Source: a virus (Duplodnaviria; Caudoviricetes). Taken from it: a DNA stretch of 24,957 nt. This document shows positions 3,031 to 21,300 of this stretch, piece by piece. A program made the translations under genes and the position numbers. The stretch spans positions 1-24,957 of the IMG/VR virus record IMGVR_UViG_3300014775_000942. One strand, 5' to 3'. How positions within the stretch are numbered: position 1 is the first letter of the stretch; every line of letters starts with the position of its first letter. The notes beneath the pieces were generated by a model. It was not told the origin of the DNA. It did no database searches and saw only the letters and a program-made list of their open reading frames with translations.

Positions 3031-3057
3031 AATAGTAAAAAGCAGGGGTTGAGGAAA

Positions 3058-4224
3058 ATGGGAAGTGCTGTAATAGCAAAGAGCGATATGGACTTTCACA
3101 TACTCAAAAGCAAAAGCGATTTAATGATTGGGGGATATGCAAGCATAGAAATCGTGGATAAGCAAAATGATTTAATTACACTAAAAGCGTTGGAGGATGC
3201 AGTAGACAAATTTATGTCAAGAGATAGATATAGAAATGTTATGACAAACCACTCAAATGTTCAAGTAGGAGAAGTAGTAAAATCTTATAGAGATAAAAAC
3301 GGAAAACTATGGAAAACAGAAGTAGATGATGTGGGATTTTTTGTAGTAATAAAATTAAGAGATGACATAGAAAAAGCAAAAGAAATTGGAAGAGGGATTC
3401 GCAAAGGAACATTAAGGAGTTTTAGCATAGGAGGACAGGCATTACAGAAAGTAAAAAAACAACATGAAGAGTTGGGTGAATACAGCGAAATCAGTAAGTT
3501 GGAATTACATGAAGTGACTATATGCGAAAAAGGAATTAATCCCGAAGCGAAGTTTGACATTTTAAAACAAGAAAAAGGTGAAGAAAAAATGAGCGAAAAA
3601 TTAGAAAAAGCGTTGGAGGAATTGGATACTCTACTTGAGGAAGTCAATACTCTAAGGAAAGAAGAAGAAATGGAAGAGAACATGGCTCCTCCATCTGAAG
3701 AAATGATGGATGAAGAAGAGAACATGGGCGGAGAATATATGGATGAAGAAGCAAAGGCATATGTTCCTACAGTAGATGGAGCAGGTGTAGAAATTGGTGA
3801 TGTAGCAGACCGTGTTGTAATAGACAATGGAAACCCACGCCACCAACCACAAACTGTTGTTAAGTCCTTTAGCAATGATGAAATTTCATCATTGAATCTT
3901 TCTCCGGAAAACATCGAGAAAGCATACCGTGAATTTAGAGCAGAACAATTGGAAAAGATTGCTTATGACAATCTTGCAAAATCTTTCGAAACAAGATTCA
4001 AGAAAGAAGTTTCTTCAAGAGAAGATATTATTTCAAAGCAAAACTATGATGCAAAGAGCGAAGTTTCCGCACTAAAGGAAGAAATCGCAGAACTAAGAAA
4101 ATCATTTACAGTAGAAAAATCTGAAATTCTCAAAGCACAGCAACCAAAATCAGTTGCTCTACCATCTATGGATGATGTAGCAAATATGTCATGGGCAGAC
4201 TTAAACAGGCTTGCTGGAAATTGA
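3058..4224 (+). CDS. HK97-type prohead protease fused to a C-terminal scaffold
   Basis: GGYAS…VDKQND, NHS (His), RSFSIGG (Ser) and HEVTIC..GINPEA motifs, then an acidic coiled-coil C-terminal half. Sits directly before the capsid gene. ATG 3058 follows GGGGTTGAGG. Confidence 0.88.
   Translation: MGSAVIAKSDMDFHILKSKSDLMIGGYASIEIVDKQNDLITLKALEDAVDKFMSRDRYRNVMTNHSNVQVGEVVKSYRDKNGKLWKTEVDDVGFFVVIKLRDDIEKAKEIGRGIRKGTLRSFSIGGQALQKVKKQHEELGEYSEISKLELHEVTICEKGINPEAKFDILKQEKGEEKMSEKLEKALEELDTLLEEVNTLRKEEEMEENMAPPSEEMMDEEENMGGEYMDEEAKAYVPTVDGAGVEIGDVADRVVIDNGNPRHQPQTVVKSFSNDEISSLNLSPENIEKAYREFRAEQLEKIAYDNLAKSFETRFKKEVSSREDIISKQNYDAKSEVSALKEEIAELRKSFTVEKSEILKAQQPKSVALPSMDDVANMSWADLNRLAGN
3589..4224 (+). 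CDS. putative nested in-frame scaffold protein (MSEKLEKALEEL…)
   Basis: Internal RBS AGGTGA (3576-3581) lies 7 nt before in-frame ATG 3589, at the protease/coiled-coil boundary. Confidence 0.55.
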   Translation: MSEKLEKALEELDTLLEEVNTLRKEEEMEENMAPPSEEMMDEEENMGGEYMDEEAKAYVPTVDGAGVEIGDVADRVVIDNGNPRHQPQTVVKSFSNDEISSLNLSPENIEKAYREFRAEQLEKIAYDNLAKSFETRFKKEVSSREDIISKQNYDAKSEVSALKEEIAELRKSFTVEKSEILKAQQPKSVALPSMDDVANMSWADLNRLAGN

Positions 4225-4237
4225 GGGGGAATTAAAA

Positions 4238-5581
4238 ATGGCAGGATACATTAACACAATTAGAGATTTAGAAGCAGAAACATACGGAATAGGTGGCGCA
4301 TTTGGCGGAAACGATATTCTAAAACAGGCAGGTGTCACACAAGGTTTGCACACTGCTCACGATATTGCTGACACTGCGGCATCCGGAGTGACAGGAATTT
4401 CTACAACAACCGGACTTTACAATGTTCTTTACGGACAAAAAGTTTGGTCTATGCTAAACAGAGAAGTAAATGCACTATCAATGATTGCAAAAAGACCTTA
4501 CACATCTTCCGGATGGAGAGTTCTAAAGAGCAGACCTTTTGGTGGCTCCGGTAATACTTTGGCAGAAGGACTACAAAGAGATGGAACAGGTGGCGGAATT
4601 GGTGCTGATGATGCACAATTTGACGAAATCGGTGGAGTAGCAGAAAACGCAGGACTATCAACTGCGGCTGATGGTTTAGGTAGTATGGCTCCAACATATG
4701 CTCAACTATTTATGAGTCCAAAAACTGTTGCACATCAATTCGATTTCTCTGAATTGGCTTTAGAAATGGCAAAGATTGATGACGGTATTGGAGATATTAG
4801 AGCGCAACTAAGAGAAGATATGGGAATTGCTCACGCAGAATCTCAAAACATGATGCTTCTAACTCCATTAGAAAACTATGGTGAAGCAAGCGCACTATCT
4901 AACATTGAGAGAAACTATACTTCTCTTAACAAGATTATTACAAGTAGAGCAGAACTTTTGGCTATTGATGGCGGAGTAATCGCTACAGATACTACTTCTG
5001 CTTCTAACAACTTGGGTAAAATTTACGGTGATGAAAGATTTACTGCGGCATCTTTCCTTGATGCAGAAGTAGATTTCGGTAGTGCTTATGGTGCAGGAGA
5101 TGTTCGTTCTCTAACACTAACTCTACTAAATAACATGATTAGAAACCTAAGAATTGCAGGTGGTTCACCAAAGGTAATTCTAACAGGATACGATACTATT
5201 CAAGCGGTTGCAGATTTGCTACAATCTCAAGAAAGATTCATGGATAGAAAGGAAATTGTTCCTACTGTTAATGGAGTTCGTGGAGTAAAGGGTGCAGAAG
5301 TAGGATTTAGAGTAGCAACATACTACGACATTCCTCTAATTCCTTGTAAGGATATGGCTTCTACAGGAAGTGCATCTACTAAACTAAGTGATTTGCTTTT
5401 CCTTGATACAGACCATCTATGGCTTGCGGTTATGAAACCAACACAATATTTCGAAGATGGTATTACTAACGGAAACCCATTCGGTGTAGGCAGACTTGGA
5501 AACCAAGCACTTTACCGAACAATTGGAGAAATGGGCTGTTCATTCTTTAAGGGTCAAGGAAAGATTACTAACATACAGTGA
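4238..5581 (+). CDS. major capsid protein (HK97 fold)
   Basis: 447 aa, follows the protease/scaffold. P-domain-like segments PKVILTG, VATYYDIPLIP and LLFLDTD. ATG 4238 follows GAGGGGG. Confidence 0.88.
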   Translation: MAGYINTIRDLEAETYGIGGAFGGNDILKQAGVTQGLHTAHDIADTAASGVTGISTTTGLYNVLYGQKVWSMLNREVNALSMIAKRPYTSSGWRVLKSRPFGGSGNTLAEGLQRDGTGGGIGADDAQFDEIGGVAENAGLSTAADGLGSMAPTYAQLFMSPKTVAHQFDFSELALEMAKIDDGIGDIRAQLREDMGIAHAESQNMMLLTPLENYGEASALSNIERNYTSLNKIITSRAELLAIDGGVIATDTTSASNNLGKIYGDERFTAASFLDAEVDFGSAYGAGDVRSLTLTLLNNMIRNLRIAGGSPKVILTGYDTIQAVADLLQSQERFMDRKEIVPTVNGVRGVKGAEVGFRVATYYDIPLIPCKDMASTGSASTKLSDLLFLDTDHLWLAVMKPTQYFEDGITNGNPFGVGRLGNQALYRTIGEMGCSFFKGQGKITNIQ

Positions 5582-5591
5582 GGCGTTTTAA

Positions 5592-5930
5592 ATGACACAT
5601 ACTGTAGCGTTAATCGCAGACCATAAAGGACAAACAAGGCCAAGAGTTAGCGGTGACGAGTATTTTGTAGATGCGGCAATTGATATTACTGCATATGTTC
5701 AAAACGGAATTACCGTCACTGCTTCCTCTTTGGGATTAAGCACTATTACAGCAGTATTTGTGACAGGAGTAGAAGAGGAAACTCATTCTGCTCAAGCAAT
5801 CGCTACTGCTGAAACCGGACTATATGAATCTACAAGCAGTTTCAAACTACTACTGAATGTTGGGGCTTCCGAGCAAACAGGAACAGCAAATGAAGGAACT
5901 GTTAGAGTAAGAGTCTACGGAAACCTTTGA
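5592..5930 (+). CDS. small beta-rich virion protein, possible capsid decoration/cement protein
   Basis: 112 aa, Thr/Ala/Val-rich, immediately after the MCP, RBS GAGGCG. Confidence 0.55.
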   Translation: MTHTVALIADHKGQTRPRVSGDEYFVDAAIDITAYVQNGITVTASSLGLSTITAVFVTGVEEETHSAQAIATAETGLYESTSSFKLLLNVGASEQTGTANEGTVRVRVYGNL

Positions 5931-5941
5931 GGGGTGTTTAT

Positions 5942-6325
5942 TTGGCTAAGGTTATTCTTAGTGAATCTTCTGTAATGGGAAGGTTAGTAATAGGTAGGGA
6001 AGAAATTACAAGAGAAGAATCTTGTGAAATTTCTGCCTTAAAAGGTCTTTTAAGAATAGAAGACCCTAACCTTCTCATTACTTTTGAAGAATCAGATAGA
6101 GAAGAATTAGAAAACTTAGATGAAAAAATATTGGTTTTGGCCTCTTCTATATTAAACTTGGAAGAAACTCCTACAGGAGAACAGGTAGCAGATGCTCTAT
6201 TACCTAAAAAGAAAATAGTTTCTAAGGTAAAGGACAGTGCTAAAAAGGCCACTAAGAAGGTAAAAGAAACAGTAGTTCCTACTGAAAGTGAGCCTTCCGA
6301 AGATGTTGAAGAAGTCGCTGAATAG
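5942..6325 (+). CDS. hypothetical protein with a Lys-rich then acidic C-terminal tail
   Basis: Track ORF 5927..6325. TTG 5942 follows RBS GAGGGGTG. Confidence 0.65.
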   Translation: MAKVILSESSVMGRLVIGREEITREESCEISALKGLLRIEDPNLLITFEESDREELENLDEKILVLASSILNLEETPTGEQVADALLPKKKIVSKVKDSAKKATKKVKETVVPTESEPSEDVEEVAE

Positions 6326-6375
6326 GCGATATCTTCAAGTATTAAGCCAATAACCCGACTATAGGAGAGGGAAGA

Positions 6376-6705
6376 ATGGTTGATAGTTGTAGGTCAAGTG
6401 GAGTTTTAACTGCAAGTGCAGTTGTAGCAGGTCATCCTTGTAAATTAAAGAGCATACATGTTAGTGCAAGGGCTAATGGGCCGGATACCGTCACAATAAA
6501 AATATTCGATTCTAAGGATGCTACTTTAACAGGCAATACTGAACTAGCGAGATTTGTCACAGATGGAACATCTATAGGATATACTAATGTTGAATATGAT
6601 ATGCACGGAGTTTTAGCAAGAGAGGGTCTTTATCTACAAATAACAAATAGTTCGGGAACTCCCGACCCTGCCACTGTTCATGCAGTTTCAGTAGAATTTA
6701 ATTAA
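6376..6705 (+). CDS. small beta-strand-rich putative virion protein
   Basis: 109 aa with an alternating hydrophobic pattern, RBS GGAGAGG. Confidence 0.6.
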   Translation: MVDSCRSSGVLTASAVVAGHPCKLKSIHVSARANGPDTVTIKIFDSKDATLTGNTELARFVTDGTSIGYTNVEYDMHGVLAREGLYLQITNSSGTPDPATVHAVSVEFN

Positions 6706-6715
6706 GGTGAAAAAA

Positions 6716-7108
6716 ATGCCGGCACTAGCACACGATACAAGATTAATTATGACTATCCTATTCGTAGGAACAGTTAGCGGAGCAAATGTTTTCTTTTATG
6801 CTAATTATGGAACTAAGTTTCCTTACACTACTTTAGCACATGCTACTTTATTTGGATTAATAACAGTAGGTTCTATTATGATATTAAAGGCAATTTTTGA
6901 TTTAGCCTTAAATGAAAAAATAGAAATGTATCTATTAGATAGAAGAGTTAGTCACTTTTGGGCGCAAAAGAGAAAAGAAGAAGAACAGAAGCAAAAGATT
7001 AGAGAAACAATGAAGAATTATAATACTACTTATAATGTTCAACCTCAATTTGTTTCTACTATGGAAGACGGAATTGGCAACGAGTTTTTAGCGGCAATAG
7101 AACAGTGA
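6716..7108 (+). CDS. membrane protein with 2 TM helices and a charged coiled-coil tail
   Basis: Hydrophobic LIMTILFVGTVSGANVFFY and ATLFGLITVGSIMILKAIF, then QKRKEEEQKQKIRE. ATG 6716 follows AGGTGA. Confidence 0.75.
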   Translation: MPALAHDTRLIMTILFVGTVSGANVFFYANYGTKFPYTTLAHATLFGLITVGSIMILKAIFDLALNEKIEMYLLDRRVSHFWAQKRKEEEQKQKIRETMKNYNTTYNVQPQFVSTMEDGIGNEFLAAIEQ

Positions 7109-7118
7109 GGTATTCCTC

Positions 7119-7331
7119 ATGGTTTTTACCGGATTCGATGAAAGCGCAATGGCGTATGATTTACAAAGAGCGCATTCTGCTGATATATGGTTTCTAAAAT
7201 TTAGAGCATATTTTTGGGGAAGTTGCGCTACTTTAGCAGGATTTCTAATAGGAAATATACTTGGAGTATTTGATATTAATATTTTAGGGTGGATTTTAGG
7301 AACTTTACAGGATGCTTGGAATCATATTTAG
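7119..7331 (+). CDS. small membrane protein (70 aa)
   Basis: TM segment FWGSCATLAGFLIGNILGVF with GxxxG spacing, then amphipathic ILGWILGTLQDAW. RBS GAGGT. Confidence 0.7.
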   Translation: MVFTGFDESAMAYDLQRAHSADIWFLKFRAYFWGSCATLAGFLIGNILGVFDINILGWILGTLQDAWNHI

Positions 7332-7341
7332 GTGATTAAAT

Positions 7342-8004
7342 GTGTCAGTCCTCGCAGGTTTCGCTATTGTAATTACAGAGGCCGCTATTTCTTTTTATAA
7401 AAGAGTTCACGCTATAAATTTTGGAGTCTATGGTGCAACAATGGTTGGTAAAACAACCTTACATCACCAATTGAGAACAAGAGGGGAAGTTCCCGAAATA
7501 CAAAAAAGAACTGTAGGATTACATAGGGGAACTCGTAAAACTGTAAAATTAGATGGAGAAACCCATACTCTCAAAACGGCAGATGTTGGGGGAGAATCTT
7601 TTTATTGGAAAGAATGGATAAAAGATATGCAAAAACGAAAAGTAAATTATATTATTTTTATGATAGACCATAGGCATTTAGAAAAGTCTGCTAACTTAGA
7701 CCATCAATTAGCATGGAAGTTTTTAGTGGATTCAATATGTTCTTCTGTATGGCCTAACGGAAAGAAAAAGAAGGAGAGCGACTATCCTTTAGCGATAGGG
7801 ATTTGGGCGAACAAATTTGACCTTTGGAATAAAAAATACCCCTATGAAGGGGAAATAAAAGACCATCCCATCTTCGAGCCTTTTAAGTATGGGATGCAAC
7901 GGTTAAATGATAAGGGGATTCCTACTTTCAAGTATATCGTATCTGCTAAATCACAACCGGAAATGGTGTATCGGGGAATTACAACAATGATAAAGGATTA
8001 TTGA
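7342..8004 (+). CDS. Ras-superfamily small GTPase, Arf/Sar-like
   Basis: G1 GATMVGKTT, G2 RTVG, G3 DVGGE, IIFMID strand, G4 WANKFD and G5 SAK, plus a hydrophobic/amphipathic N-terminal helix. GTG start follows AGGTGA. Confidence 0.85.
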   Translation: MSVLAGFAIVITEAAISFYKRVHAINFGVYGATMVGKTTLHHQLRTRGEVPEIQKRTVGLHRGTRKTVKLDGETHTLKTADVGGESFYWKEWIKDMQKRKVNYIIFMIDHRHLEKSANLDHQLAWKFLVDSICSSVWPNGKKKKESDYPLAIGIWANKFDLWNKKYPYEGEIKDHPIFEPFKYGMQRLNDKGIPTFKYIVSAKSQPEMVYRGITTMIKDY

Positions 8005-8009
8005 TTATT

Positions 8010-8657
8010 ATGTTTCAACAACCGAATTTAATAGGACAACAAATGAATACAACTGCACCTTTGGCATTTTTGCCACCGTTGCAAAGAGCGAGAGCAAGTG
8101 GCCCTGTAGAAGAATACAAGTGTATGGCAATTAAACCAAAAAAACAATTGAAAGAATTAACTAAAGTATTGCTTCCCGAAAAAAAATCTTTTCTAAAGAT
8201 AAAATATGGATATAAGTTTAATCTAAAAGACCGTTGCGTAGTTTGCGGAACTCATCATATTTGGGATAGTGGAGATTATATGCGGCCTCCTATTCCCCTA
8301 TCTAATGTAAATAAAGGAAGACCTATGCGTGGAACTTATTGCCCTAAACATTCTGCTATTCATAGACAGATGGAAATGCTACAACAACAGATTTTGGCAG
8401 AACAACATGGTTTAGAATTTAAGGCATTTATTCCTAAAATACCAAAAATAACAAAGGCAGGGCCAATTACTACACTAACTAAAGAAGATGTTAGTAGTTT
8501 AGTTTCAGCCGGATGGCTTATTAAACCTCCCTCTTTAGCAGATAATAAGACGGCTACAAATGAAGCGATAGAAATTGTAGGTGAAATAAATATTTTAACA
8601 GAAAGATTAAATCACTTAATGATAAAGCAAGGTGTGAAAGTGGAAGGAGAGGAATAA
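8010..8657 (+). CDS. putative Zn-finger (C-x2-C-x31-C-x2-H) and coiled-coil protein
   Basis: CVVCGTHH…YCPKH, Pro-rich stretches and a C-terminal heptad helix. ATG 8010 is in frame with track ORF 8001. Confidence 0.65.
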   Translation: MFQQPNLIGQQMNTTAPLAFLPPLQRARASGPVEEYKCMAIKPKKQLKELTKVLLPEKKSFLKIKYGYKFNLKDRCVVCGTHHIWDSGDYMRPPIPLSNVNKGRPMRGTYCPKHSAIHRQMEMLQQQILAEQHGLEFKAFIPKIPKITKAGPITTLTKEDVSSLVSAGWLIKPPSLADNKTATNEAIEIVGEINILTERLNHLMIKQGVKVEGEE

Positions 8658-8658
8658 A

Positions 8659-9303
8659 GTGTTTGGAACAAGTAATGGCACAGTATTAACTGCGGTTCAG
8701 CAACAGGGCGACCAACAATTCAAAAGCATGAACAATTTGTTATCTTTACAAGATAACCATGTTGAAGAATTTTTTCAATATCATGGAGAAAAATTTCTAA
8801 CTAGTTTAGAAAAATTAATTGAAGATACTGTAGAAAGAGTAGTTAGCCAAATGTTAGTTAAATTACAATTGGTTCAAGATGATACTACTAAGACTATTAG
8901 AGTTCATCCGGATGCTCTAAGAGAATATGAAAGAATTACTCAAGAAAATATACAATTAGATATTATTAATCTACTAAATTCTGCTATTGATGTAGAGGTT
9001 ATTAATCAAAGAAAAATGGCTAAACAGCAATATCTTGAATCTCAAGGTTTTGGTGGAGTTCAACCAACAGCAGGAATGGCAATAGCGGGATTAACAGGAA
9101 ATACTCAACAGTATCAGCAAATGCAAGGTGCTATGAATAATGGAAGTGGCTATCCAATTCCTCCTAATGGAACTGACCCATATGGAAGACCGTATTGGAT
9201 TGACCCACAAACAGGACAAACTTCTTACGAACCTCCTAGTAGTGGTTTAGGATTAGGTAGTGCGATTCAAAAAGGTGCGGCTTGGGCAAAATGGTTAATG
9301 TGA
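8659..9303 (+). CDS. Gln-rich helical protein with a WW-like motif and a C-terminal amphipathic helix
   Basis: GTG start follows GGAGAGGA. Contains YPIPPNGTDPYGRPYWIDPQTGQTSYEPP and ends LGSAIQKGAAWAKWLM. Confidence 0.7.
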   Translation: MFGTSNGTVLTAVQQQGDQQFKSMNNLLSLQDNHVEEFFQYHGEKFLTSLEKLIEDTVERVVSQMLVKLQLVQDDTTKTIRVHPDALREYERITQENIQLDIINLLNSAIDVEVINQRKMAKQQYLESQGFGGVQPTAGMAIAGLTGNTQQYQQMQGAMNNGSGYPIPPNGTDPYGRPYWIDPQTGQTSYEPPSSGLGLGSAIQKGAAWAKWLM

Positions 9304-9313
9304 GGCGTTAAAG

Positions 9314-10636
9314 ATGCCTACACAAGTTATTGATATTGGCAAAATTAAAATATGGCCTACTGATTATCCCGATACTTTACTACAGGTAATATTAGGAAAA
9401 GAAAAGTTAGATATTGAAAATATGATTGCAAGGTCTTCTATTGATATGAAGATAGATTTTGATGTAGAAGTATTTAGTGATGAGGGTTTAGAAGAATTGG
9501 AAAAAATAAAAGATATGAATATTTTTACTCTTTTAGATAAAATGGGAGATGTTGGTAGGGATGCTTTAAAAGATATTAAAGATACTACGGCTTTTGAAAA
9601 GTATAAAAATTTTACACTGAAAGATATTCTTGAAGATGATTATAAAAGAAATAAATTAGTCGGCTACAATGTATTTGCTTATGAACAACAAGAAGATGAT
9701 TGGGTTCCCACTACTGTTTTAGGCACTCGACAATTAGAAAGTGGGCAAAGAATGAAAGGAGTTCCTGATTTAAATTGGGAGAACTTAAATTTAAAAATTG
9801 ATGAAACGGGAGTAAAGGTGGCTGATAAATCTAAAGATTTGTTTGATATTGTTAAAGATAATGCCATAGTAGATTTCATTATTCCCGATTTAGAAGAAAT
9901 TCAAATAGAGCATATGAAAAAGTATTATGACAATCTTGCAATAGTAGATACTAATAGAAAAACCAATACCTTATCTAAAAAAATTAAATTTAATAAAAAA
10001 AAGATGAAAGAAGAAATTCTTAAAACAATAGCAGGTAGTTTTAATCCTTCTATAATAGGAGATATAAAAATAAGAATAATTAAAGATAGTTTTTCTGATG
10101 ATACTATAGAAGCAACTTTAGAAGTTTCGCATACCGAGCGTAGAAGAATAGAAGTCGCTCCTTTTGGTGTAAAAGAATCTTTAGTGACTCAAAGAGTGAC
10201 AGAAGATGATTTTAGAGAATTATTAGATGAGAATAAAGGTAGCATACCTGTTAAAAATTCTATACAAGAACCTTTTACAATATTAGAAGAAGGTGAAAAA
10301 GTAAAATTAGATTTTTCTGAGAATATAACATTAGGAGATATTCAAAATTTAGACAATTATGTTGATGTATTATTTGGAAAAGAAACTATAGAAGGGGCAT
10401 ATGATGAAACAATACACGGTGATAGAGTTAAATATAGATTTATTATGAGAACTCTTAACCGACTAAAGGCAGAATATATGGGTAAATCGGGTGCAAAACC
10501 ATCTAGAACTACTCATCTTGAAGGATATAAAGTAAATAAAAAAATGGATGATATTCTTCAAGACATTGAAGAAAGATATGTGGAATTAGAAGATGATGTA
10601 GAAAATGCCGTTGATTTCTTGGAGGGAGATGATTAA
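9314..10636 (+). CDS. hypothetical acidic protein (440 aa)
   Basis: Long ORF with RBS GAGGCG, D/E/K/I-rich, no motif recognised. Confidence 0.75.
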   Translation: MPTQVIDIGKIKIWPTDYPDTLLQVILGKEKLDIENMIARSSIDMKIDFDVEVFSDEGLEELEKIKDMNIFTLLDKMGDVGRDALKDIKDTTAFEKYKNFTLKDILEDDYKRNKLVGYNVFAYEQQEDDWVPTTVLGTRQLESGQRMKGVPDLNWENLNLKIDETGVKVADKSKDLFDIVKDNAIVDFIIPDLEEIQIEHMKKYYDNLAIVDTNRKTNTLSKKIKFNKKKMKEEILKTIAGSFNPSIIGDIKIRIIKDSFSDDTIEATLEVSHTERRRIEVAPFGVKESLVTQRVTEDDFRELLDENKGSIPVKNSIQEPFTILEEGEKVKLDFSENITLGDIQNLDNYVDVLFGKETIEGAYDETIHGDRVKYRFIMRTLNRLKAEYMGKSGAKPSRTTHLEGYKVNKKMDDILQDIEERYVELEDDVENAVDFLEGDD

Positions 10637-11958
10637 TGCCAACCGTATTTTCCCCAAGCGACTACACTTCTATTAATCCGGACTATTCCGAAGGAAGAGG
10701 ATTCTATACAGATATAAGTGCCATTTCCGACCTTCTACAAATTCCTGCTTTTACTGCTTTAACTAATCCTACTAATGCTCAAGTTGGCTCAATTATTAAA
10801 AGAGTAGAAGGAATAATTGATGATAGTATAAAGCGTTCTTTTAGACCGATTAGACATGAGAAAGAGTTTCACGATTTTCATTTTGGTAGGCATCCTGCTG
10901 ATTCTTACTACGGTGGATATGTTGGTTTTGTTCAACTACAACATATGAAAGTTAGAAAAATTGTTAGCCTACAAGTTTGGCAAGGAAACTCTTACAAAGA
11001 AATTGCTTCTGCTCAAGCAAGTATTACAATAAACGAAGATAACTACGGTGATATTAACAGTATTATTTTATCACTTCCCGATGGAACTGCCTTTACTTTA
11101 GAATCAAGCACTAATGTAGGAGGCTCTTTATTAGATTCTAAATTTAATTCAAGATTTGGCTCCAAGACAACTGCAAAGGATATTATTTCTTTAGTAAATG
11201 AACAATTTCCTTCTAATACGGCAACTTTTACAGGAGCAGACAATAAGAAAAGTCTAACAGAAGATGGAGGAACTAACTTTAATGTTTCAGATTTTTTCTA
11301 TGCTTGTAGTGATTATGATAATGGTAGAAAAATAAACATTTCAAGTTTGTTAATGGGCGAAGATGGTTCAGATTGCACATTAAAGGTCACTACTCAACAA
11401 ACTATTTCTCACACTAATTTAAGCACTAATTTAGTTGTAGAAGATACGAGTAAGTTAGCAGTTGGAATGACTATTGCTGATTCTAATAGCCATATTCCTG
11501 CAAATACAACAATCACTGCAATAGTAGATTCTACTAATATTACTATCTCAAATGCCGCCACTAATACGGGGAGTTCAACAGGAACTTTTACTTCTACAGA
11601 TTCTATTCCTAATGTTTGTGAAATTGTTCCTTTTACAGATAAGCAAGATATGAAAAGAATTGGCAGTTTTTGGAAAATAGGAAATGAAGGAAGATTATTC
11701 TTTTTGAAAGACTTCCCATACCATACTAACAATTCTGTAATTGTTTCTTACATTGCGGGAGATGCAAGAGTTCCTTCGGCAATACACGAAGCGGCTACTA
11801 AATTAGTTGCATCTGAAATACTAAGACATGACGACCAAACTATTCTTATTGCTGAAACGGGTGCAAATATCACTACTAAAGAAAAGTATGATATTTTGAG
11901 AAAAGAGGCTATGGAAATAATAAATGGTAAGAAAGATATTGTCTATATTATCGAGTGA
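10636..11958 (+). CDS. head-tail adaptor (gp6/gp15-like) with inserted beta domains
   Basis: N-terminal YTDISAISDLL and C-terminal VSYIAG..RVPSAIHEAATKLVASEIL resemble adaptor helices. Position before the tail genes fits. RBS GGAGG, TAATG overlap. Confidence 0.65.
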   Translation: MPTVFSPSDYTSINPDYSEGRGFYTDISAISDLLQIPAFTALTNPTNAQVGSIIKRVEGIIDDSIKRSFRPIRHEKEFHDFHFGRHPADSYYGGYVGFVQLQHMKVRKIVSLQVWQGNSYKEIASAQASITINEDNYGDINSIILSLPDGTAFTLESSTNVGGSLLDSKFNSRFGSKTTAKDIISLVNEQFPSNTATFTGADNKKSLTEDGGTNFNVSDFFYACSDYDNGRKINISSLLMGEDGSDCTLKVTTQQTISHTNLSTNLVVEDTSKLAVGMTIADSNSHIPANTTITAIVDSTNITISNAATNTGSSTGTFTSTDSIPNVCEIVPFTDKQDMKRIGSFWKIGNEGRLFFLKDFPYHTNNSVIVSYIAGDARVPSAIHEAATKLVASEILRHDDQTILIAETGANITTKEKYDILRKEAMEIINGKKDIVYIIE

Positions 11959-11963
11959 TTATA

Positions 11964-12173
11964 ATGTTAGAAAATACCAAACAACTATTTGAAAAATATC
12001 TCGAAATAGAAAAAGAGAGAAATTTACAAATGCTTGAAGTTTCTCGCCTATTAGGAGTAGACTTTACTTTTTCAGAAGAAGAACTTTTGAAAAACGCAGA
12101 AGAACAATTGGCAAAACATATGGAAAAACAATTAACTGAAAAGGTAGAAAAAATGTTTAAGGGGATGAAATAA
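11964..12173 (+). CDS. small helical hypothetical protein (neck region)
   Basis: ATG 11964 follows GAGTGA. E/K/L-rich. TAATG overlap with the next gene. Confidence 0.6.
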   Translation: MLENTKQLFEKYLEIEKERNLQMLEVSRLLGVDFTFSEEELLKNAEEQLAKHMEKQLTEKVEKMFKGMK

Positions 12174-12682
12174 TGGATGAAGTTAGTTTGCTAATTGACC
12201 TCTTAGATAATAATTGGTCGAGTTCTGCCACCACTTTACAGAGTGCGGGAACTATTACATCAGACCATATTGGAAAACCTAACATTATTGATATTAGAAC
12301 TCTTGAAGCAAATAGGGGAACAAGATACGATTTATCTTTAAAAGATTTAATTGTAGTTTTTGAAGATAGTCAAAATATAGAATATCCTACGGTGCATTTT
12401 GATATTAGAAATGAATCTCATTCTTTTACAATACACATTCGCCATGTTCAAGATGAAAGAGCAGGAACCGATTCAGATTTTGGCAAAGATAGGCTAAGGG
12501 CTTTATACTTGATTACTCGTCATGTGCTTGAGGGGAAGCGAACAGGTTATACTGCATCGGATGGTTCTAAGTTTAATCAAATTTTTGTAGGCTCAAGAAA
12601 TGAATCCAATGACAGGAAAAAAAGAATTTATGGATACAAAATTAGCGTTGAAACAAAAAGATTCGCACTCTCAATCCCATAG
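12173..12682 (+). CDS. tail terminator / tail completion protein
   Basis: 169 aa alpha/beta protein directly before the tail tube. Call rests mainly on synteny. Confidence 0.5.
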   Translation: MDEVSLLIDLLDNNWSSSATTLQSAGTITSDHIGKPNIIDIRTLEANRGTRYDLSLKDLIVVFEDSQNIEYPTVHFDIRNESHSFTIHIRHVQDERAGTDSDFGKDRLRALYLITRHVLEGKRTGYTASDGSKFNQIFVGSRNESNDRKKRIYGYKISVETKRFALSIP

Positions 12683-12705
12683 TAAGTAAGTAAGGAGAGA
12701 GAAAA

Positions 12706-14334
12706 ATGCCAAACACAGATATATTTTTAGGAAGTGGAGCAACTTTAACATTAGTGCCGGAAACAGATTTGTATATTGAAATACAAACTTCGGGAAGTTC
12801 TACAACAGTTTTGAATACTCATGGAGATTTTCAAGGTAAATATAAAATGGTAAATAATTTGTATGTTGGTTGCATTTTAGATTTATATGCAACAGGAACT
12901 ACAACTCCTCTATCTTCACATACTATTTCAGAAAATGATGCAAGCACTATTACTATTTCTCCTGCTTGCAGAACACCTGTTTCGGGAGATTTTGTAGTAA
13001 TTAGAGGCTACGGTGCGCCTAATGTTGGTGGTGCTAATGGAGCAGTTAAAAGATTAAATGCTGATAATTGGATTGGTATTTTAGAAAGTGCTACCTTTCC
13101 TAATGTAGAAGTAGAAGTTAAGCAAACCAATCTTTCATTAGGCGGTTCTCGAAATTTTACTCACCAATACAAAGGAGTAGAAACTGCAAGTGGAGGAAAT
13201 TTGAATATTGTTGCTAATCATGGAACTTGGTTATATTATGCTTTAGGAAAATGCACCACTGTAGAGTTAAATGCTATCGCTACTAATCCGGTAGCAGATG
13301 GAACACAAGTTGTAGCAAATGCGGCAGGTGATGTATATATTGACACTAATGGCGGAGCAGGAGGGGCAGTAAGCACTTCTAATCATTTAGAACAGGGGCC
13401 AATTTTCTACAAGACTTCTTATTCTACAACAGGAACACAATCTACTACACTTACCCCTCCTCTTGTAAAATACTTAGATGATAGAACCGCTTGTTTAAAA
13501 TTAGATGTTCCTACTACTCCTGCTTCAATAACTAAAGATATTACATATACATTTGGTGAAGCAAATGGAGAGGAACTTCCTTCTTTTGCTTTAGAACAAT
13601 CCATTAGTAAATTAGTTAGTGGTTCTGAAAACTTAACAGATACTACAAGTGCCACTCCTTTAGAAGACCTAAACTTTGTAAGAATTGCAAGAGGAAATAG
13701 AGTTAATACCTTTACTATGACCGCTAATGAAAATGAAGAAGTAAAAATGACTCTTGATGTAATGACAAGAACTGTTCATAAATTAGAACAAAATGAAGCA
13801 TATGAATCTAGAGGCGGTGCAGGAACTACTAACACTGATTTGTTTAATTTTGAAACAGATGAGTTCTTGGAACCATTCTTTTTCTCAAGAGGTTCTTTTA
13901 GTTTATTCGGGCAACAATTCCTAAAGGTCACAAATATGTCCTTGACTATTAACAATAATCTACAAGAAAAGAGGTTCATTGGAGTAGGAAATAATTCTAT
14001 TCAAGAGGCCATTCCTGCAAATAGAGGATATGAATTATCATTTACTGCTTTAGTGACAGATGATTTACTCTTTGAAGAATTATTCAATAGAAACGAAAAT
14101 ACCGGAACTTCTGTAGTGACAAACGGAACAAATTTTGCCACTGATGCACAGATTGATTTACAATTTGACAAGGCAAATGGAGAAGAAATTAATATTTCTT
14201 TCAAAAATTATTTCTTAGAAAGTGCAAACTTTACAATACCCGAAGATAAGGGGCCAATCACTGTAGAAGCAATGGTAAGGCCAAAAGATTTACAGGCTTG
14301 CACAGTAAAAACACATTGGATTCTACAGGGGTGA
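12706..14334 (+). CDS. major tail tube protein with extra domains
   Basis: Tube-type strands PSFALEQ, GNRVNTFTMTANENEEVKMTLDV, VTNMSLTINNNL and RGYELSFT. Followed by the chaperone and tape measure genes. Confidence 0.75.
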   Translation: MPNTDIFLGSGATLTLVPETDLYIEIQTSGSSTTVLNTHGDFQGKYKMVNNLYVGCILDLYATGTTTPLSSHTISENDASTITISPACRTPVSGDFVVIRGYGAPNVGGANGAVKRLNADNWIGILESATFPNVEVEVKQTNLSLGGSRNFTHQYKGVETASGGNLNIVANHGTWLYYALGKCTTVELNAIATNPVADGTQVVANAAGDVYIDTNGGAGGAVSTSNHLEQGPIFYKTSYSTTGTQSTTLTPPLVKYLDDRTACLKLDVPTTPASITKDITYTFGEANGEELPSFALEQSISKLVSGSENLTDTTSATPLEDLNFVRIARGNRVNTFTMTANENEEVKMTLDVMTRTVHKLEQNEAYESRGGAGTTNTDLFNFETDEFLEPFFFSRGSFSLFGQQFLKVTNMSLTINNNLQEKRFIGVGNNSIQEAIPANRGYELSFTALVTDDLLFEELFNRNENTGTSVVTNGTNFATDAQIDLQFDKANGEEINISFKNYFLESANFTIPEDKGPITVEAMVRPKDLQACTVKTHWILQG

Positions 14335-14338
14335 TTCT

Positions 14339-14446
14339 TTGGATAAATATACTAAAAGAAGAATTATGGCTGAAAAACTAAAGGCTAAGAAAAGAGGCCG
14401 ACCAAAAAAAGAAGAGGTAGTTAAAGAAGAAGAAACTACTGAATAA
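14339..14446 (+). CDS. 35-aa AT-hook micro-protein (MDKYTKRRIMAEKLKAKKRGRPKKEEVVKEEETTE)
   Basis: TTG follows GGGGTGA (14328-14334), the ORF fills the gap after the tube gene, and it contains KKRGRPKK. Below the track's length cut-off. Confidence 0.6.
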   Translation: MDKYTKRRIMAEKLKAKKRGRPKKEEVVKEEETTE

Positions 14447-14448
14447 TT

Positions 14449-14487
14449 TTCCACCAACTGTTTGTTTGTTTGTTGGTAGGGGTGGAA
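14449..14487 (+). promoter_or_regulatory. hairpin with (GTTT)3 loop overlapping the chaperone RBS; possible terminator/attenuator
   Basis: TTCCACC (14449-55) pairs with GGTGGAA (14481-87), and ACCAAC (14453-58) pairs with GTTGGT (14472-77). Confidence 0.45.
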
Positions 14488-14491
14488 GAAA

Positions 14492-14860
14492 ATGATTGAT
14501 AAAAAAATAGTAAGTAATAAGAGTGTAATGTTTGCACTCGCAGAAGCAAAATGCCATTGGGTAAAAGTAGCACCGGATTCAGACGAATATCTGAAAGTGT
14601 GGATAAAAGACCCTACATGGTTAGAAGTAGAAAAAGCGGTTAATACATTATTAAAAATTGATGCTAAGAATCAAAACTTAGACATTGATATGAATAAAAT
14701 GTATCGCTACATGGTTGACAATTTTATTACAAAGACAGAACCATCTTTGTCAACTGTAGATTTAATTAAACTCACACCGTATATCGGTAATCAAATAAAA
14801 GAAATTTTACCTAATCCTTTCGAAATGTTAGCGGAGGATGAGGAAAAAAACGAAGGTTGA
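14492..14860 (+). CDS. tail assembly chaperone (lambda gpG-like)
   Basis: 122 aa between tube and tape measure genes, ending in a slippery site. Confidence 0.75.
   Translation: MIDKKIVSNKSVMFALAEAKCHWVKVAPDSDEYLKVWIKDPTWLEVEKAVNTLLKIDAKNQNLDIDMNKMYRYMVDNFITKTEPSLSTVDLIKLTPYIGNQIKEILPNPFEMLAEDEEKNEG
14845..14851 (+). other. programmed -1 ribosomal frameshift site A AAA AAC
   Basis: X XXY YYZ heptamer in the correct phase, 2 codons before TGA. The -1 frame continues into ORF 14857..15063. Confidence 0.8.
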
Positions 14861-15063
14861 GGCGAGCAATTAGAAGCGGTCAAGGCGACCCTTCTATAGC
14901 AAGCCTCATAATGGTTTATACATTAGCAAGAGCGTTGAAGATAAGCCCATTAGAAGTATATCAGATGCCGGCACAATTAGTAAAAGATATGTTAGCGATT
15001 CACGGATATGTAGAAGAGTTAAAAGCAGAAGAATTAGAGAAGCAGAGTAAGAAGAGGAAGTAG
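14857..15063 (+). CDS. frameshift extension of the tail chaperone (gpT-like)
   Basis: In the -1 frame of the upstream ORF. LARALKISPLEVYQMP resembles gpT-type helices. Confidence 0.7.
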   Translation: MRRAIRSGQGDPSIASLIMVYTLARALKISPLEVYQMPAQLVKDMLAIHGYVEELKAEELEKQSKKRK

Positions 15064-15064
15064 T

Positions 15065-16516
15065 ATGGCTACAATGGAAGAGTATATTAGTGGCTTAGAA
15101 AAGAGTGCTTCTAAAGTATCTGCTCTTGAACAAAAAATAAAAAGTTTAGAAAAAAGTTTAGCCTCACAACAAAAAAGCATGGAAAAGGGTGCTAAAGAGG
15201 TCACTAAGTATAGGGGTTTTCTATCTAAAGCGGGTGATGCAGTTGAAAATTTCATGAACTCGGAAAATTCCTTTGTTTCCTTTACTCGAAGAGTAGTATA
15301 TTCTTTAGGAGGATTTTCTGTTTTAAATAAGGTGAATGTTTGGCTTAGAGGAACAGGCAAAGTTTGGGATACTTTTGTTGGAGGGTTTATTAAAAAAGTT
15401 CCTCTTCTTTCAAAATCTATAGGCGAAGTCACTGAAAAAAAGGGCTTTATGGAAAGACTAAGCGGATATGGTGAATATTTAGCAGGAGCCACGACAGGAA
15501 AGGAAAGTCTCTTAAGATTAGGTGGGAAAAAAGTAAGAGAAAGAGGAGAAGCAAGGAGGGGAGCCATAAAAGGAATGTTCAGAAAGGCCGCAGGTAAAGA
15601 TACAAGTATGAACTTTGCAAACTTTTTTGAACAAATAGAAAATAATAATGATGTTTTAGTAAATCATAGTAGAAAAATGGCATGGTTAAGAAAAGGCGGA
15701 AATTTAATATTAAATGTGATTAAAATAGCAGGTAAGGTTTTACTAAAAGCATTCACATTTATGATAATGACTACTGTTTATATTATGGCTATTATTGCAA
15801 TTGCCACCACTGCATATACCTTCTTAAAAGGATTTGCTGATGGTTTTAAAGAACAATTTTCTCCAATAATAGAAGTCTTTAAACAAACAGTAGAAGTAGT
15901 ATGGAATGGAATAAAAGGAATATTTGGTTTTATATTTGGAGATACTTCATTTGAAGAAATGATTTTTGGGATATTTGATGCGGCATGGGCTTTAATTTCT
16001 TTTGCACTACAATTTACATGGACTTTACTTAAAGCATTAGTAGCGGGATTATGGTCGGGTCTTCAATCACTATACAAAAAAGCGGTAGATATATTCAAAG
16101 GACTTTCATTAAAAGGAAAAATCATAGCGATTGTAGTAGCAATCGGGGCAATAGTATTGTGGTTATATGGCCTTCCTGTAATTATGCCACTAATTATTTT
16201 AGGAGCATTATATTTATTTGGTAAATGGTTCCTCAAAAAATTCGATTTCTTGGCTACAGGAGGAACAGTAAATTCTCCTGTTCAGATAGTTGGAGAAAGG
16301 GGGCCGGAAATAGTTTCATTACCAAGAGGCTCAAAGGTGTTTAGCAATACCCAAAGTAGAAGAATGGTAGGAAATTCCGGAACTCAAATTAATAACTACA
16401 TCACAATAAATGCTAAAGATACTTCTGATATGGAAATGAGAAGAATCGCAGATAAGATTGCAGGAATGGTTAATAATAAGATTAATCGAACAACAAGTAG
16501 TAGAACAATGGGGTGA
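15065..16516 (+). CDS. tape measure protein (483 aa)
   Basis: N-terminal coiled coil, hydrophobic/amphipathic helices and the C-terminal FLATGGTV…IVGERGPEIV motif typical of TMPs. Follows the chaperone. Confidence 0.8.
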   Translation: MATMEEYISGLEKSASKVSALEQKIKSLEKSLASQQKSMEKGAKEVTKYRGFLSKAGDAVENFMNSENSFVSFTRRVVYSLGGFSVLNKVNVWLRGTGKVWDTFVGGFIKKVPLLSKSIGEVTEKKGFMERLSGYGEYLAGATTGKESLLRLGGKKVRERGEARRGAIKGMFRKAAGKDTSMNFANFFEQIENNNDVLVNHSRKMAWLRKGGNLILNVIKIAGKVLLKAFTFMIMTTVYIMAIIAIATTAYTFLKGFADGFKEQFSPIIEVFKQTVEVVWNGIKGIFGFIFGDTSFEEMIFGIFDAAWALISFALQFTWTLLKALVAGLWSGLQSLYKKAVDIFKGLSLKGKIIAIVVAIGAIVLWLYGLPVIMPLIILGALYLFGKWFLKKFDFLATGGTVNSPVQIVGERGPEIVSLPRGSKVFSNTQSRRMVGNSGTQINNYITINAKDTSDMEMRRIADKIAGMVNNKINRTTSSRTMG

Positions 16517-17150: not shown

Positions 17151-18302
17151 ATGTATGAAATTTTAACAGGAAAACAAAGAGGTTTAGTTTTTCCTGTAAT
17201 GTGTAATGGGCATGTTGTTATAGATTATAGAGATAATATTGCCGATACAGAAAATGATACTGATACTACAAATGATGTTGCATATGGATTATGGGCGCAT
17301 GAAGATTCTTTTACCTTTGAAAGTATTATTACTCCATATGAAATAAATGGATATGGAACTTATTCTTCTTTAACTAAACCTACATACACTAGTAAAAAGG
17401 TAATGCCGGCACTTTCGCAATCTGTTTATACGGCAGGAAATGAAGCAGACTATCAAAGCGAATTATATCTATCAAGAACTGCAAGATTGACTCATGAAAT
17501 GATGATTTTTTACAATACTAATTTTCAAGTATCTTTAGTTAATTCTACACTACATAATGAAAATGAACCCGCAAAATACAAAATAAGAGTTAGGCTAAAA
17601 TTAGGTTCTTCTACAGAAACATATACAACGGGGGAAGTTATCCTACCTGCACAAAATGGAAGGTCTTTCAAATATGAAACAATTTTAGGTTCTCCATCAT
17701 TAGCCACTGATGCAAACGGTAGAAAAATATACAGAAAGGTAGCAAGTATTTCAAGTCACAGTGGGGCTACTTTTACTACAAGTGCCGCACAATATTTATT
17801 TGCAGGAGATAAGCAAGAAATTTTTATTATTAATAGCGGAACTCCGGTTTCTTTAGGAACTATTAACGCTCTTAGTGCATCTACAGGAAGTGCTACCGTC
17901 ACACTAACTTCTGCCTATTCTCCTACTATTTCAGATGGAACTAATCTGTATATTAAGGAAGAACAAATGGCTACCTATACGGAAAAAGCGTTTCATATTG
18001 CTTGTTCTTTTCAAGCCTCTACTCGAACTTTAAACATTTTTTTAGACGGTGATTTAATTTCTACTAACACGCATTCTACCGATGCTACATTCTCTTTTGC
18101 AAGAGAAGATACTTATTTGGGGGCAAATGGAAGCGGGGCTACAGGAGCAGGTTCAGCCACCACAAATAAACAATTTATGGGAGTTTTACACGAACTTTCT
18201 ATAATGAATGTTAGCAGAAAACAATTTTTAGGTATTACTAATTTATTACCTAATTATGATAACACCTTAGTTTATTTTAGATTTGAGGAGGTAGACCTAT
18301 GA
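17151..18302 (+). CDS. LamG/concanavalin A-like tail protein
   Basis: FTFESII, FHIACSF…LNIFLDG, YLGANG, FMGVLHELSI and LVYFRFEE match the Laminin_G_3 pattern with an insertion. RBS AGGTGA. Confidence 0.7.
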   Translation: MYEILTGKQRGLVFPVMCNGHVVIDYRDNIADTENDTDTTNDVAYGLWAHEDSFTFESIITPYEINGYGTYSSLTKPTYTSKKVMPALSQSVYTAGNEADYQSELYLSRTARLTHEMMIFYNTNFQVSLVNSTLHNENEPAKYKIRVRLKLGSSTETYTTGEVILPAQNGRSFKYETILGSPSLATDANGRKIYRKVASISSHSGATFTTSAAQYLFAGDKQEIFIINSGTPVSLGTINALSASTGSATVTLTSAYSPTISDGTNLYIKEEQMATYTEKAFHIACSFQASTRTLNIFLDGDLISTNTHSTDATFSFAREDTYLGANGSGATGAGSATTNKQFMGVLHELSIMNVSRKQFLGITNLLPNYDNTLVYFRFEEVDL

Positions 18303-21300
18303 CGGATAGAGTTAATATTTTATCTTCGGGTCAAACCACTACATATGGGCATAGTGGGCAAACCTCTACAGGAAGTGCAACTATTACTTCTATAACTCCT
18401 ACTAATGTTTATGTAGGAATGAAAGTAAGTGGTCTTTCTTCTATTCCCGATAATACTTTTGTAGAGAGTGTTGGGGCTTCTACCGTCACTATGACAAATA
18501 ATGCTACGAATGCAGTAAGCGGTATTGTAAAATTTCAACAAGTAAATTATGATGTTCCAACAAATCCACAAATTTCTTTAGTTAAAACTCTCACCACTGA
18601 AAGAATTTTTACAGGAGTATATGGAGATGATTCTAATTCTACTCTACAATTTAAACAAGTTGGGTATTCAAGCACTATTAATGAAGAGTTTGAAAATTTA
18701 GCCAATACAGAAGGATTTAGAATAAAGTGTTATGATTCTACTTCGCAAGAAGGAGTTCAATTAATAGATGCAACTACAAATTATACTGATGCTTTATTTG
18801 ATACTAATGATTTTTTTGTCTTACTACATTCTGATGATTATTTATTACATCATGTTGCTAAAATTACACAAGTTCTGAGAGGAGATGTTAGCGGGGATAG
18901 TTTTGAATTTCAGCCAAGATTGGGAACAGAAATTCCTAAAGGAACCAAATTTATGATATTTCAAGGGCCGGCAAAAACAACTTACCCATTGGCAATATCA
19001 ATAGGAATAAAAAAAGATTTACAATTTGACTTACATTGTTCTCGCCCATTGTTTTACTTTTTTAACGATAATTTAGATAAAGATAATGAATTAAATCATA
19101 ATACAAAATATTACACTTATGTTCAAACTACTAATAGTGCGGGGGTTGTAGATTTAGCGGCAGGAAACACGGCAACTACTTTGACAGTGACAGAGTATGC
19201 TCAAGATATTGTAGACTATAGTAAATATAATCTAAGGGCTAAGGTAGTAGATAATTTAAGAACTTTAGACGCTCCTTTAACAAATACAAGCAATGAAGGA
19301 AATACTCCTAACTCTTTAGATTTTACAGACTATGATGATGCTTTTCCTAATGCTAGAAGGGATGATGATGACGACCATACTACTCTTCAATATAGAGGCA
19401 TAAGAAGATATTTGCACTACGGATATTCTCCGGACAACTGCAATTTTACCTACAATGTATATGATAATACAGTGTTTGAATCATATGGGCAAAGAGGAAG
19501 TTATTCCGAAAGTAAAATAGCAGATTTATTTAGAATACAGAATAAAAAGATTATAGAAAATACGCCCTATAGAATAAGGCATTCGGTTCATAGGGGAAGT
19601 TTAGAGGATTGGTTTGCTTTAGATGCAAAAATAACTGTAGATTCTTCACCTACTTATACGGTGCAAACACCATTTGATTTAAATAATTTCTTAAATAATA
19701 ACGATGAAATAAAAATAGGAGATACTATATTTTTAATAAATTCAATGGGGAGTTTTGTTTCTGCTACAGGAACTACTCCTTCTACTCAAACAATTACTTT
19801 AAGAACAAGTGGAGCGAATAAATTGAGTAAAGCAGATGGCGTTGCCGGAGTATTTAGTGCTTCATCAGACCCAACGATTGCGATTGATTCAATAATTTAT
19901 AGAAGGGCATTTAATAGGGCAGATATTACTTTAATGACAGATTTTCCTTTAGTAGATAATAGGCAAAATAGCCTCTTTGTTAAATTAATTTCTACAGAAT
20001 ATCCAAATCTTAGAGCAGGAGTGACTTCTATTGATGTAGATAAAAAATTATTAACTCTTAATTTTTCTTCAAAATCATATATCCCATATACTTCTACAAA
20101 TGGAACTGCCTTACAGTGGGCTACAGGTTCGTATGAATTAGAAATAGAAAAATTTAACGGCACTGTTGAAGATATTAATTCTTATCAAGAAAACGGGCAA
20201 AGAATTTTGGCAATAAGTGGTAGAAATAATTTAAGTAAGTTATTATCTCCTGTAGTGAATAAAAATACTTTGCATAGTAAAGATATTATCTATTCTACTA
20301 ATAGTCCATTAAATAATATTTCTTTAATATTGAATGCTCCTGTTATTGTTTGTTCTTTTGATACTGATGTTGTCACTTTCATAGAAAGTAGTGGAGGAAC
20401 TCCTACTAACCACTATTTATCTGTAGGTCAAGATGTTTTTGTTTATCATGAAGAACATAAAACCTTTTCTTATGTAGGTAGGGTAAAAACAGTAGATAGC
20501 GCAAGTCAAATAACATTAGAGCAAAATTCTCTTGCAGAAACAAGTGGCAACTATGGGACAGAAGAAGGAGATGATATAGGAGCATATGCAACTTCTAAAC
20601 ATTATATATTTAATAAAGCCCTATCAACAAATTCTTTTCAAAACACAAGCACTGATTTAACTGCTACTTCTGAAAAAGGACTATTTTTTGATAGTGGGCA
20701 AACTATTTCAAGTGTAGGAGCAGAAACAGAAACCTTAGTTGGAACTTCTGCAAGTGATGATAGTAGAGCAATAGGGTATTTTATTAGTGATACTAAAGCA
20801 ATAAAAAGCGATAGTAAGTTTCAAGCAAGATTAGATGATAATGCCACTTCTAAAAATTATGAATCATTTGATACAATTAATACTTTAATTGATTTTTCTA
20901 TATTAAGCATAAAGAGGTCTGATAATAATACTTTAGTTGAAATTGCGCCTCATCTTCCTTTAACTTTAGGAAGAGTAGATATTAACTACGCAAACACTCA
21001 AGATACTACATTTACAGATATTGGGGCTTGTAGTGTAGGAACTTCCGGAAATAGTTATTTTACTATAGATAAAGATGTTAGCACTGCTCTATTATCAACT
21101 ACAGCAGACCCAAGAAAATATCACAATAAGCCAATATATTCTAATGGAACATTTATTGGAAAAATGCTACTTTCTACTTTACATACAGACCACGATACAA
21201 TTTATGTTTATTTAGATAGAAAATTAACTTCTACAATTAGTGGAGAAACAATTCAAGTTTTGACAGAAGACTCTTATTTAGAAAGCAGTAAATTAACTCA

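Follow-up and report, generated by a model that had tools for sequence, protein, structure and literature searches.

A conserved five-gene cassette around a Ras-superfamily small GTPase in the structural block of a magrovirus, predicted to form a membrane-anchored switch

The virus record IMGVR_UViG_3300014775_000942 carries, just after its capsid genes, five small co-oriented genes designated here as A, B, the GTPase gene, D, and E (Table 1). The window, that is, the whole stretch of 24,957 bases that was analysed, covers 27% of a genome and, judged from its gene content, corresponds to the structural gene block of a magrovirus. The five genes move together as a single conserved unit, and this cassette is a separable module that is not needed to build the virion. 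Its sequence supports a membrane-associated GTPase unit. As the best explanation, although held at somewhat below an even chance, the cassette is proposed to act late in infection as a GTP switch that is anchored in the membrane and serves the release of virions.

A scan of IMG/VR returned 314 relatives; the best 80 were retained, and the counts for close loci come from those 80 and from loci with room only. Genes A and B accompanied the GTPase gene at 79/79 loci each, D at 68/69, and E at 66/66; the next gene downstream of the cassette was recognised in only 15/61 loci. A scan with the switch-II motif gave 120 loci, 80 of them with flanks, and exposed a divergent lineage 2, with 17 loci and with GTPases 27–35% identical to that of the window. 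At all 17 loci, a gene with two predicted transmembrane segments (2-TM), a membrane gene of about 80 amino acids (aa), the GTPase gene, a D-like gene, and an E-like gene were present, and the same order was kept in 75/75 loci with room from 80 further loci. Homology between the two lineages was recognised by hhalign for D (97%) and E (94%) and weakly for A (14%, P 0.002); direct profile comparison of gene B with its lineage-2 counterpart was not significant. Locus L600 bridges the lineages weakly in gene A (E 0.0046 and 2.7e-15) and in gene B (E 0.044 and 2.8e-4), and locus L603 bridges them weakly in gene E. The third carrier group, which provides these bridges, has four loci; both non-redundant loci examined keep the cassette order, and in records G037 and G038 the cassette sits after a thermosome gene. 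The co-occurrence of the five genes in related viruses, which an earlier sequence-only reading of this DNA had proposed as a check, was thus found at the close loci, in lineage 2, and in the third group. The position between head and tail genes noted in that reading holds for the lineage of the window (lineage 1) but does not extend to lineage 2. There, the capsid protein is about 44% identical to that of the window, and the cassette is located outside the head-tail block, about 21 kb ahead of the capsid gene on the same strand.

Among INPHARED phages, no match was obtained at E ≤ 1. In GTDB, 1 of 17 pattern matches was a relative, located on a 12-kb contig (L082) of a Maricaulis metagenome-assembled genome and 74% identical in the GTPase; this contig is probably a mis-binned magrovirus fragment. 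No longer or fused form was present among 8000 scored candidates, which is weak evidence on such forms.

Several features of the cassette loci were recorded in addition. Variable genes are inserted inside the cassette in 24/66 loci (e.g., L001:6660-7073, L017:6660-7830, L042:5056-5999, and L078:6668-7204), and 19/21 non-redundant inserted open reading frames (ORFs) start with MWxx[IV][LI]K. The neighbours of the lineage-2 cassette begin with a similar AWxLLK, and capsid proteins carry ILKQA or LLKA near the N-terminus. Internal proteins of phage T4 carry a targeting/cleavage tag of such a kind, and the MWxx[IV][LI]K-type start is possibly a capsid-targeting or protease-cleavage tag. At locus L075 (6679-7310), gene D is apparently split by a frameshift into products of 92 and 158 aa. 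In lineage 2, all 17 loci have a further predicted 2-TM gene of about 80 aa and a gene for a Cys/His-rich helix-turn-helix (HTH) protein directly after E (e.g., L305:10385-11653), the latter with a weak match to terminase small subunit (E 0.0095). A sixth conserved gene was considered and rejected, as these extra 2-TM and HTH genes are without counterpart in lineage 1.

Relatives without the cassette were found as well. Twenty-four records of at least 30 kb were chosen by capsid motif, 23 of them searchable, and the GTPase was present in 13. Eight of the ten negative records are lineage-2 contigs which, according to coordinates and capsid type, end before the expected place of the cassette. 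The other two keep the protease, capsid, g112, G440, i169, and tail tube genes in order without it. Ten long records of the same type as these two were then taken, and in the eight searchable ones neither the GTPase nor the D profile found a match. Records G029 and G031 (both 100% complete) and G033 (88%) were searched over their whole length with eight profiles, covering all six reading frames and without filters. All five cassette genes are absent from them (best hit E 0.14), and two control loci scored strongly. These three close relatives keep the capsid, g112, G440, i169, and tube genes, and their capsid proteins are 46–57% identical to that of the window, an identity that equals or exceeds the value for lineage 2. 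Because head and tail genes are kept there without the cassette, its genes are not essential neck or tail parts, and the sequence-only reading was right to set them apart from such components; in the cassette-free relatives, head, neck, and tail genes stand in order.

The same records bear on another explanation, in which the cassette would be a membrane-anchored assembly platform to which procapsids or internal proteins are drawn and from which GTP hydrolysis frees them. The cassette adjoins the capsid genes in lineage 1 and follows the thermosome gene in G037 and G038, and genes with the MWxx[IV][LI]K start are inserted into it or, with AWxLLK, flank it in lineage 2, all of which would suit such a platform. 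Nevertheless, the relatives with 46–57% identical capsid proteins build heads without the cassette, and G038 has the cassette without a match to the window capsid, so that an assembly platform is considered improbable.

All five ORFs described in the sequence-only reading as tightly packed and co-oriented are present. The gaps from A to E are 10, 10, −4, and 1 nt, the third being +5 if gene D starts with the ATG at 8010, which homologues favour over the TTG at 8001. The gaps from the cassette to its flanking genes are also 10 nt, and therefore packing by itself does not bound the module; comparative genomics does. Rough pN/pS ratios (nonsynonymous to synonymous polymorphism) from seven close loci were 0.12–0.17 for the five cassette genes and 0.11 for the capsid protein. 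For g112, g132, g109, and h72 they were 0.35–0.62 (five loci for h72). By these rough ratios, the cassette ORFs are under purifying selection and are not chance ORFs.

This selection is relevant for the idea of a conflict system, i.e., a nucleotide-gated toxin or anti-defence unit directed against the host membrane or competing viruses. Prokaryotic conflict systems usually combine an NTPase with transmembrane proteins; the cassette matches this layout, and its presence is patchy. On the other side, the pN/pS of 0.12–0.17 is near that of the capsid protein, the gene content is fixed, and there is no variable effector among the five genes. A conflict system is the least probable of the explanations considered.

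Hydrophobic segments were identified in three of the five products, and none in D or E. Gene A has two, at residues 10–28 and 43–61 (KD19 1.76 and 1.99), with a charged helix after them, and gene B has one (KD19 1.84). In gene B, G45xxxG49 is invariant in 21/21 sequences, and RAHSAD and FWG are invariant too. The sequence-only reading had named A as a 2-TM protein with a charged helix and B as a 70-aa GxxxG membrane protein, and both names agree with these features. For A, B, D, and E, no Pfam match above the cut-off and no PHROG match was obtained. The Zn-finger and Pro-rich character given to gene D is likewise in line with its invariant Cys/His residues and RPPIP motif. Candidate Zn-site residues are C79, C82, C114, and H117, of which C79, C114, and H117 are kept in 75/75 sequences; R107 is near-invariant (73/75). 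The model of D has a pLDDT of 74, without a Foldseek match at E ≤ 0.001 and with a best VIA Z of 4.2, which implies neither a new fold nor exclusion of a family. A reading of D as a carrier of the ArfGAP-like motif CxxCxxIHR was rejected, as R122 is kept in only 13/75. In the case of gene E, the Gln-rich composition and the WW-like stretch of the sequence-only reading are present. The stretch stays below the WW threshold (21.2 bits versus the Pfam gathering value of 26.9, E 3e-4), the PDB profile match to Itch has an E of only 0.39, and no usable Atlas match was obtained. The C-terminus of E, AIQKGAAWAKWLM, is of Trp/Lys type, with 9/13 positions invariant in 13 sequences; its hydrophobic moment (muH) is only moderate, 0.33–0.40.

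By its motifs and its predicted structure, the third product is a Ras-superfamily small GTPase. It has the motifs GATMVGKT, RT57, DVGG, NKFD, and SAK. Residues G31, G36, K37, T38, T57, D81, G84, N157, K158, and D160 are invariant in 40/40 sequences of 27–89% identity, and thus G1–G4 are kept. G5 is SAK in the window lineage and AT[KR] or S[AS]Q in lineage 2. The AlphaFold model (pLDDT 66) has a single G-domain fold and was matched by Foldseek to Ras, Rab, and G-alpha at E of about 1e-7, with a TM-score up to 0.64 by target length. Matches among viral models were giant-virus Ras/Rab proteins of 8–20% identity. PDB profile matches were Rab33B (9e-5) and the Asgard ArfR structure 8oun (1e-4), and Ras ties with them. 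A Pfam Arf hit was obtained in 3/45 members, and some homologues have the JGI label ‘GTPase SAR1 family protein’. The full profile search gave 176 hits, which beyond the viral lineages are proteins of about 220 aa, many with hydrophobic N-termini, and the look-alike clusters in the Atlas are mostly bacterial.

The sequence-only reading had called this protein an Arf/Sar-like GTPase with an amphipathic helix. A small GTPase with an N-terminal helix was confirmed, and further Arf-like traits are DxGG with Trp eight residues on (42/42) and ANKxD. The Arf assignment itself holds only in part. The first approximately 13 residues are uniformly hydrophobic (mean hydrophobicity H 0.65, muH 0.10–0.18), followed by an amphipathic, basic stretch with muH of about 0.5. 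The Thr-to-Gly (interswitch) spacing is 27 in 26/26, 35–37 in 14/14, and 37–38 in 2/2 sequences. Directly behind DxGG, 23 of 42 sequences have E, 17 have Q, and 2 have H, with E in the window, so that there is no fixed switch-II Gln. Given the hydrophobic N-terminus, the longer interswitch, and the lack of a fixed switch-II Gln, the protein does not clearly show the features that define Arf and is probably not a bona fide Arf. Arg56-Thr57 is invariant in 40/40 sequences, and RT is also present in both the G037 and G038 proteins; by analogy, Arg56 could be an MglA-like intrinsic arginine finger.

If the cassette is a release switch, it would be co-expressed with the late capsid and tail genes. 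Genes A and B would mark a membrane site, and the GTPase, with its predicted tether in the membrane of the archaeal host, would stay anchored there, unlike Arf with its on/off toggling. GTP would be hydrolysed with the help of its own Arg56, as in MglA with Arg53, and a partner, likely the Zn-binding D, would position Arg56 and time the hydrolysis. The GTP state would gather E, whose Trp/Lys C-terminus may insert into, bend, or destabilise the membrane and in this way time lysis or budding. Points in favour are the synteny and fixed order of the five genes, the change of genomic position as a block, the absence of the cassette from relatives with the virion genes, the hydrophobic segments of three products, the invariant R56-T57 with MglA as a precedent, the lack of a holin or endolysin family hit among the 23 window proteins scanned, and the precedent of Haloferax, where vesicle release is under the control of a small GTPase together with a Zn-ribbon protein (PMC10927574).

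Several observations weigh against this explanation. Late timing is read from genome position only, and in lineage 2 the cassette is outside the head-tail block. R107 of gene D could be an alternative arginine finger, acting in trans, and the wider prokaryotic GTPase relatives do not conserve R-T. The complete cassette-free relatives must exit cells another way, which speaks against the cassette as the sole exit route. No endolysin had been seen in the sequence-only reading, and indeed none of the 23 window proteins scanned matched a holin or endolysin family in Pfam or PHROGs; with the window being 27% of the genome, lysis genes may sit elsewhere. Holins are reported for other Poseidoniales viruses, and holin-endolysin systems for Adrikavirales, in the accessible text of PMC11706807.

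A release switch has also to be compared with a host-takeover or superinfection-exclusion module, in which a membrane GTP switch would alter the host envelope (division arrest, receptor removal, or vesicle output) and not serve exit. The cassette is optional among close relatives and also occurs in G038, an element that differs greatly in its other genes; host-interaction modules often seem to be distributed in this way. Loss of the archaeal GTPase ArvA alters cell shape, as stated in the accessible part of PMC10927574. The lineage-1 cassette is inside a capsid-tail operon with gaps of no more than 10 nt, which suggests late expression and speaks against host takeover. This explanation is regarded as unlikely, although it deserves more weight than an assembly platform.

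Record G038 is 110 kb long and 79% complete, with the cassette at L603:2832-6271. It has 71 ORFs of at least 200 aa, of which 38 were scanned (30 in Pfam and 26 in PHROGs). Among the scanned products are an RNA polymerase subunit resembling Rpb1, a DNA polymerase of family B, a 238-aa ATPase that hit HerA/FtsK, and a thermosome, for which the closest solved structures are group II chaperonins of archaeal type. The 38 scanned ORFs gave no hit to a major capsid family, and neither the ATPase nor a 314-aa candidate capsid protein had an informative PDB match. Barring mis-assembly, G038 is possibly an undescribed non-tailed archaeal virus; against this, the ATPase has its best PHROG match in terminase large subunit (E 1.6e-17), and ‘portal’ (over a NUDIX domain) and tape measure were hit weakly. 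ESCRT budding and pyramids are known exit routes of archaeal viruses. A joint claim can be formulated, namely that two unrelated virus types of marine archaea, tailed magroviruses and an RNA-polymerase-encoding element of about 110 kb, share a portable, GTP-switched, membrane-remodelling and holin-free exit machine, that this would be a third archaeal exit route, and that its GTPase would join an Arf-like anchor to an MglA-like intrinsic arginine finger. Taken as a whole, this claim is doubtful.

The gene order of the window is ligase, prohead protease, major capsid protein, three small genes, the five-gene cassette, four further genes, tail tube, chaperones, and tape measure. G440, h72, and i169 are probably neck genes, as judged from their position. 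A homologue of the GTPase with 71% identity is labelled gp088 of Poseidoniales virus YSH_150918, and a ligase within the structural module is known for magrovirus groups A and B (accessible text of PMC5434244). From these two features, a Marine Group II archaeon is the predicted host. Directly 3′ of the cassette lies an acidic 440-aa gene (9314-10636) that is highly variable, with about 33% identity, and the same slot in cassette-free relatives is occupied by a variable gene of 800–1000 aa. A gene of more than 2200 aa (18299-24957) after the tail genes runs past the end of the window and has no confident family in Pfam or PHROGs.

Table 1. Genes of the cassette and its surroundings in the window
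Feature	Position	Strand	Remark
ATP-dependent DNA ligase, 830 aa	524-3016		Lies within the structural block; known from magroviruses
Prohead protease, major capsid protein, three small genes	3049..6705	+	Context outside cassette; Pfam and PHROGs
Gene A, 130 aa, two predicted transmembrane segments and a charged helical tail	6716-7108	+	ATG start; no family
Gene B, predicted single-pass membrane protein, 70 aa	7119-7331	+	
Ras-superfamily small GTPase (by motifs and model), 220 aa	7342-8004	+	GTG start
Gene D, predicted Zn-binding protein with RPPIP and C-terminal helix	8001-8657	+	TTG start; candidate regulator
Gene E, helical Gln/Gly-rich protein, 214 aa	8659-9303	+	GTG start; candidate membrane-binding effector
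Variable gene, G440/h72/i169, tail tube, chaperones, tape measure	9314..16516	+	Context; Pfam and PHROGs

A description of the cassette was not found in the literature on magroviruses, Poseidoniales viruses, and archaeal-virus GTPases, subscription journals being mostly outside coverage. Term searches in the main texts of PMC11706807, PMC5434244, PMC10160649, and PMC8651126 found no mention of a GTPase; their supplements may list the gene. Magroviruses are abundant viruses of a major archaeal group of the surface ocean, and the exit of tailed viruses from wall-less archaeal cells is poorly understood. A compact cassette of 2.6 kb with the mutable residues K37, T38, and R56, together with natural relatives lacking it, makes the question experimentally tractable. 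The GTPase would add a virus-borne small-GTPase branch of mixed Arf/MglA design and bears on the origin of GTPase-controlled membrane trafficking.

Compared with known systems, the cassette resembles holin-endolysin systems in having small membrane proteins in a presumably late operon, but it is built around a GTPase, and no holin or endolysin family was hit in the window. The vesiculation operon ArvA-ArvB-ArvC of Euryarchaeota (OapA/B/C) is similar in combining the gene of a small archaeal GTPase with that of a Zn-binding protein, and a part in membrane remodelling has been shown for ArvA; in Haloferax, loss of ArvA abolishes RNA-bearing vesicles and loss of the Zn-ribbon protein ArvC raises vesicle output (both from the accessible part of PMC10927574). 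At E ≤ 0.1, none of the 23 window proteins matched DUF2073 (ArvB) or DUF2072 (ArvC). The viral cassette differs by two additional membrane proteins and the hydrophobic anchor, and its only close copy in GTDB is the one that is probably mis-binned. The nearest relatives outside the cassette are unnamed prokaryotic GTPases of about 220 aa with an N-terminal hydrophobic helix (E 1e-18 to 1e-4), in which, however, R-T is not conserved.

The Arf family and Asgard ArfR share with the viral GTPases an N-terminal helix ahead of the G domain, DxGG and a Trp at +8, ANKxD, and the profile match to 8oun (E 1e-4). However, the viral spacing of 27–38 is longer than the short interswitch of 22 in HodArfR1 (T49-G71; accessible text of bioRxiv 10.1101/2024.02.28.582541), the switch-II residue is E, Q, or H, the first half of the viral helix is uniformly hydrophobic, and Rab33B and Ras score as well as ArfR. 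From MglA (group 1), the viral protein differs in G3 (DxGG[EQH] versus TVPGQ), in having no fixed Gln, and in its N-terminal anchor. No Pfam hit to a Roadblock (MglB) partner was obtained in the window, folding having covered D and the GTPase only. The likeness to MglA lies in the Arg directly before the switch-I Thr (viral R56-T57, MglA R53-T54), for which a catalytic role is suggested, since MglA uses Arg53 beside Thr54 as an intrinsic arginine finger (PMC3199381, accessible part). The spacing from this Thr to Gly is also the same, being 27 both in MglA (to Gly81; accessible parts of PMC3199381 and PMC4316618) and in 26/26 viral sequences of the window lineage.

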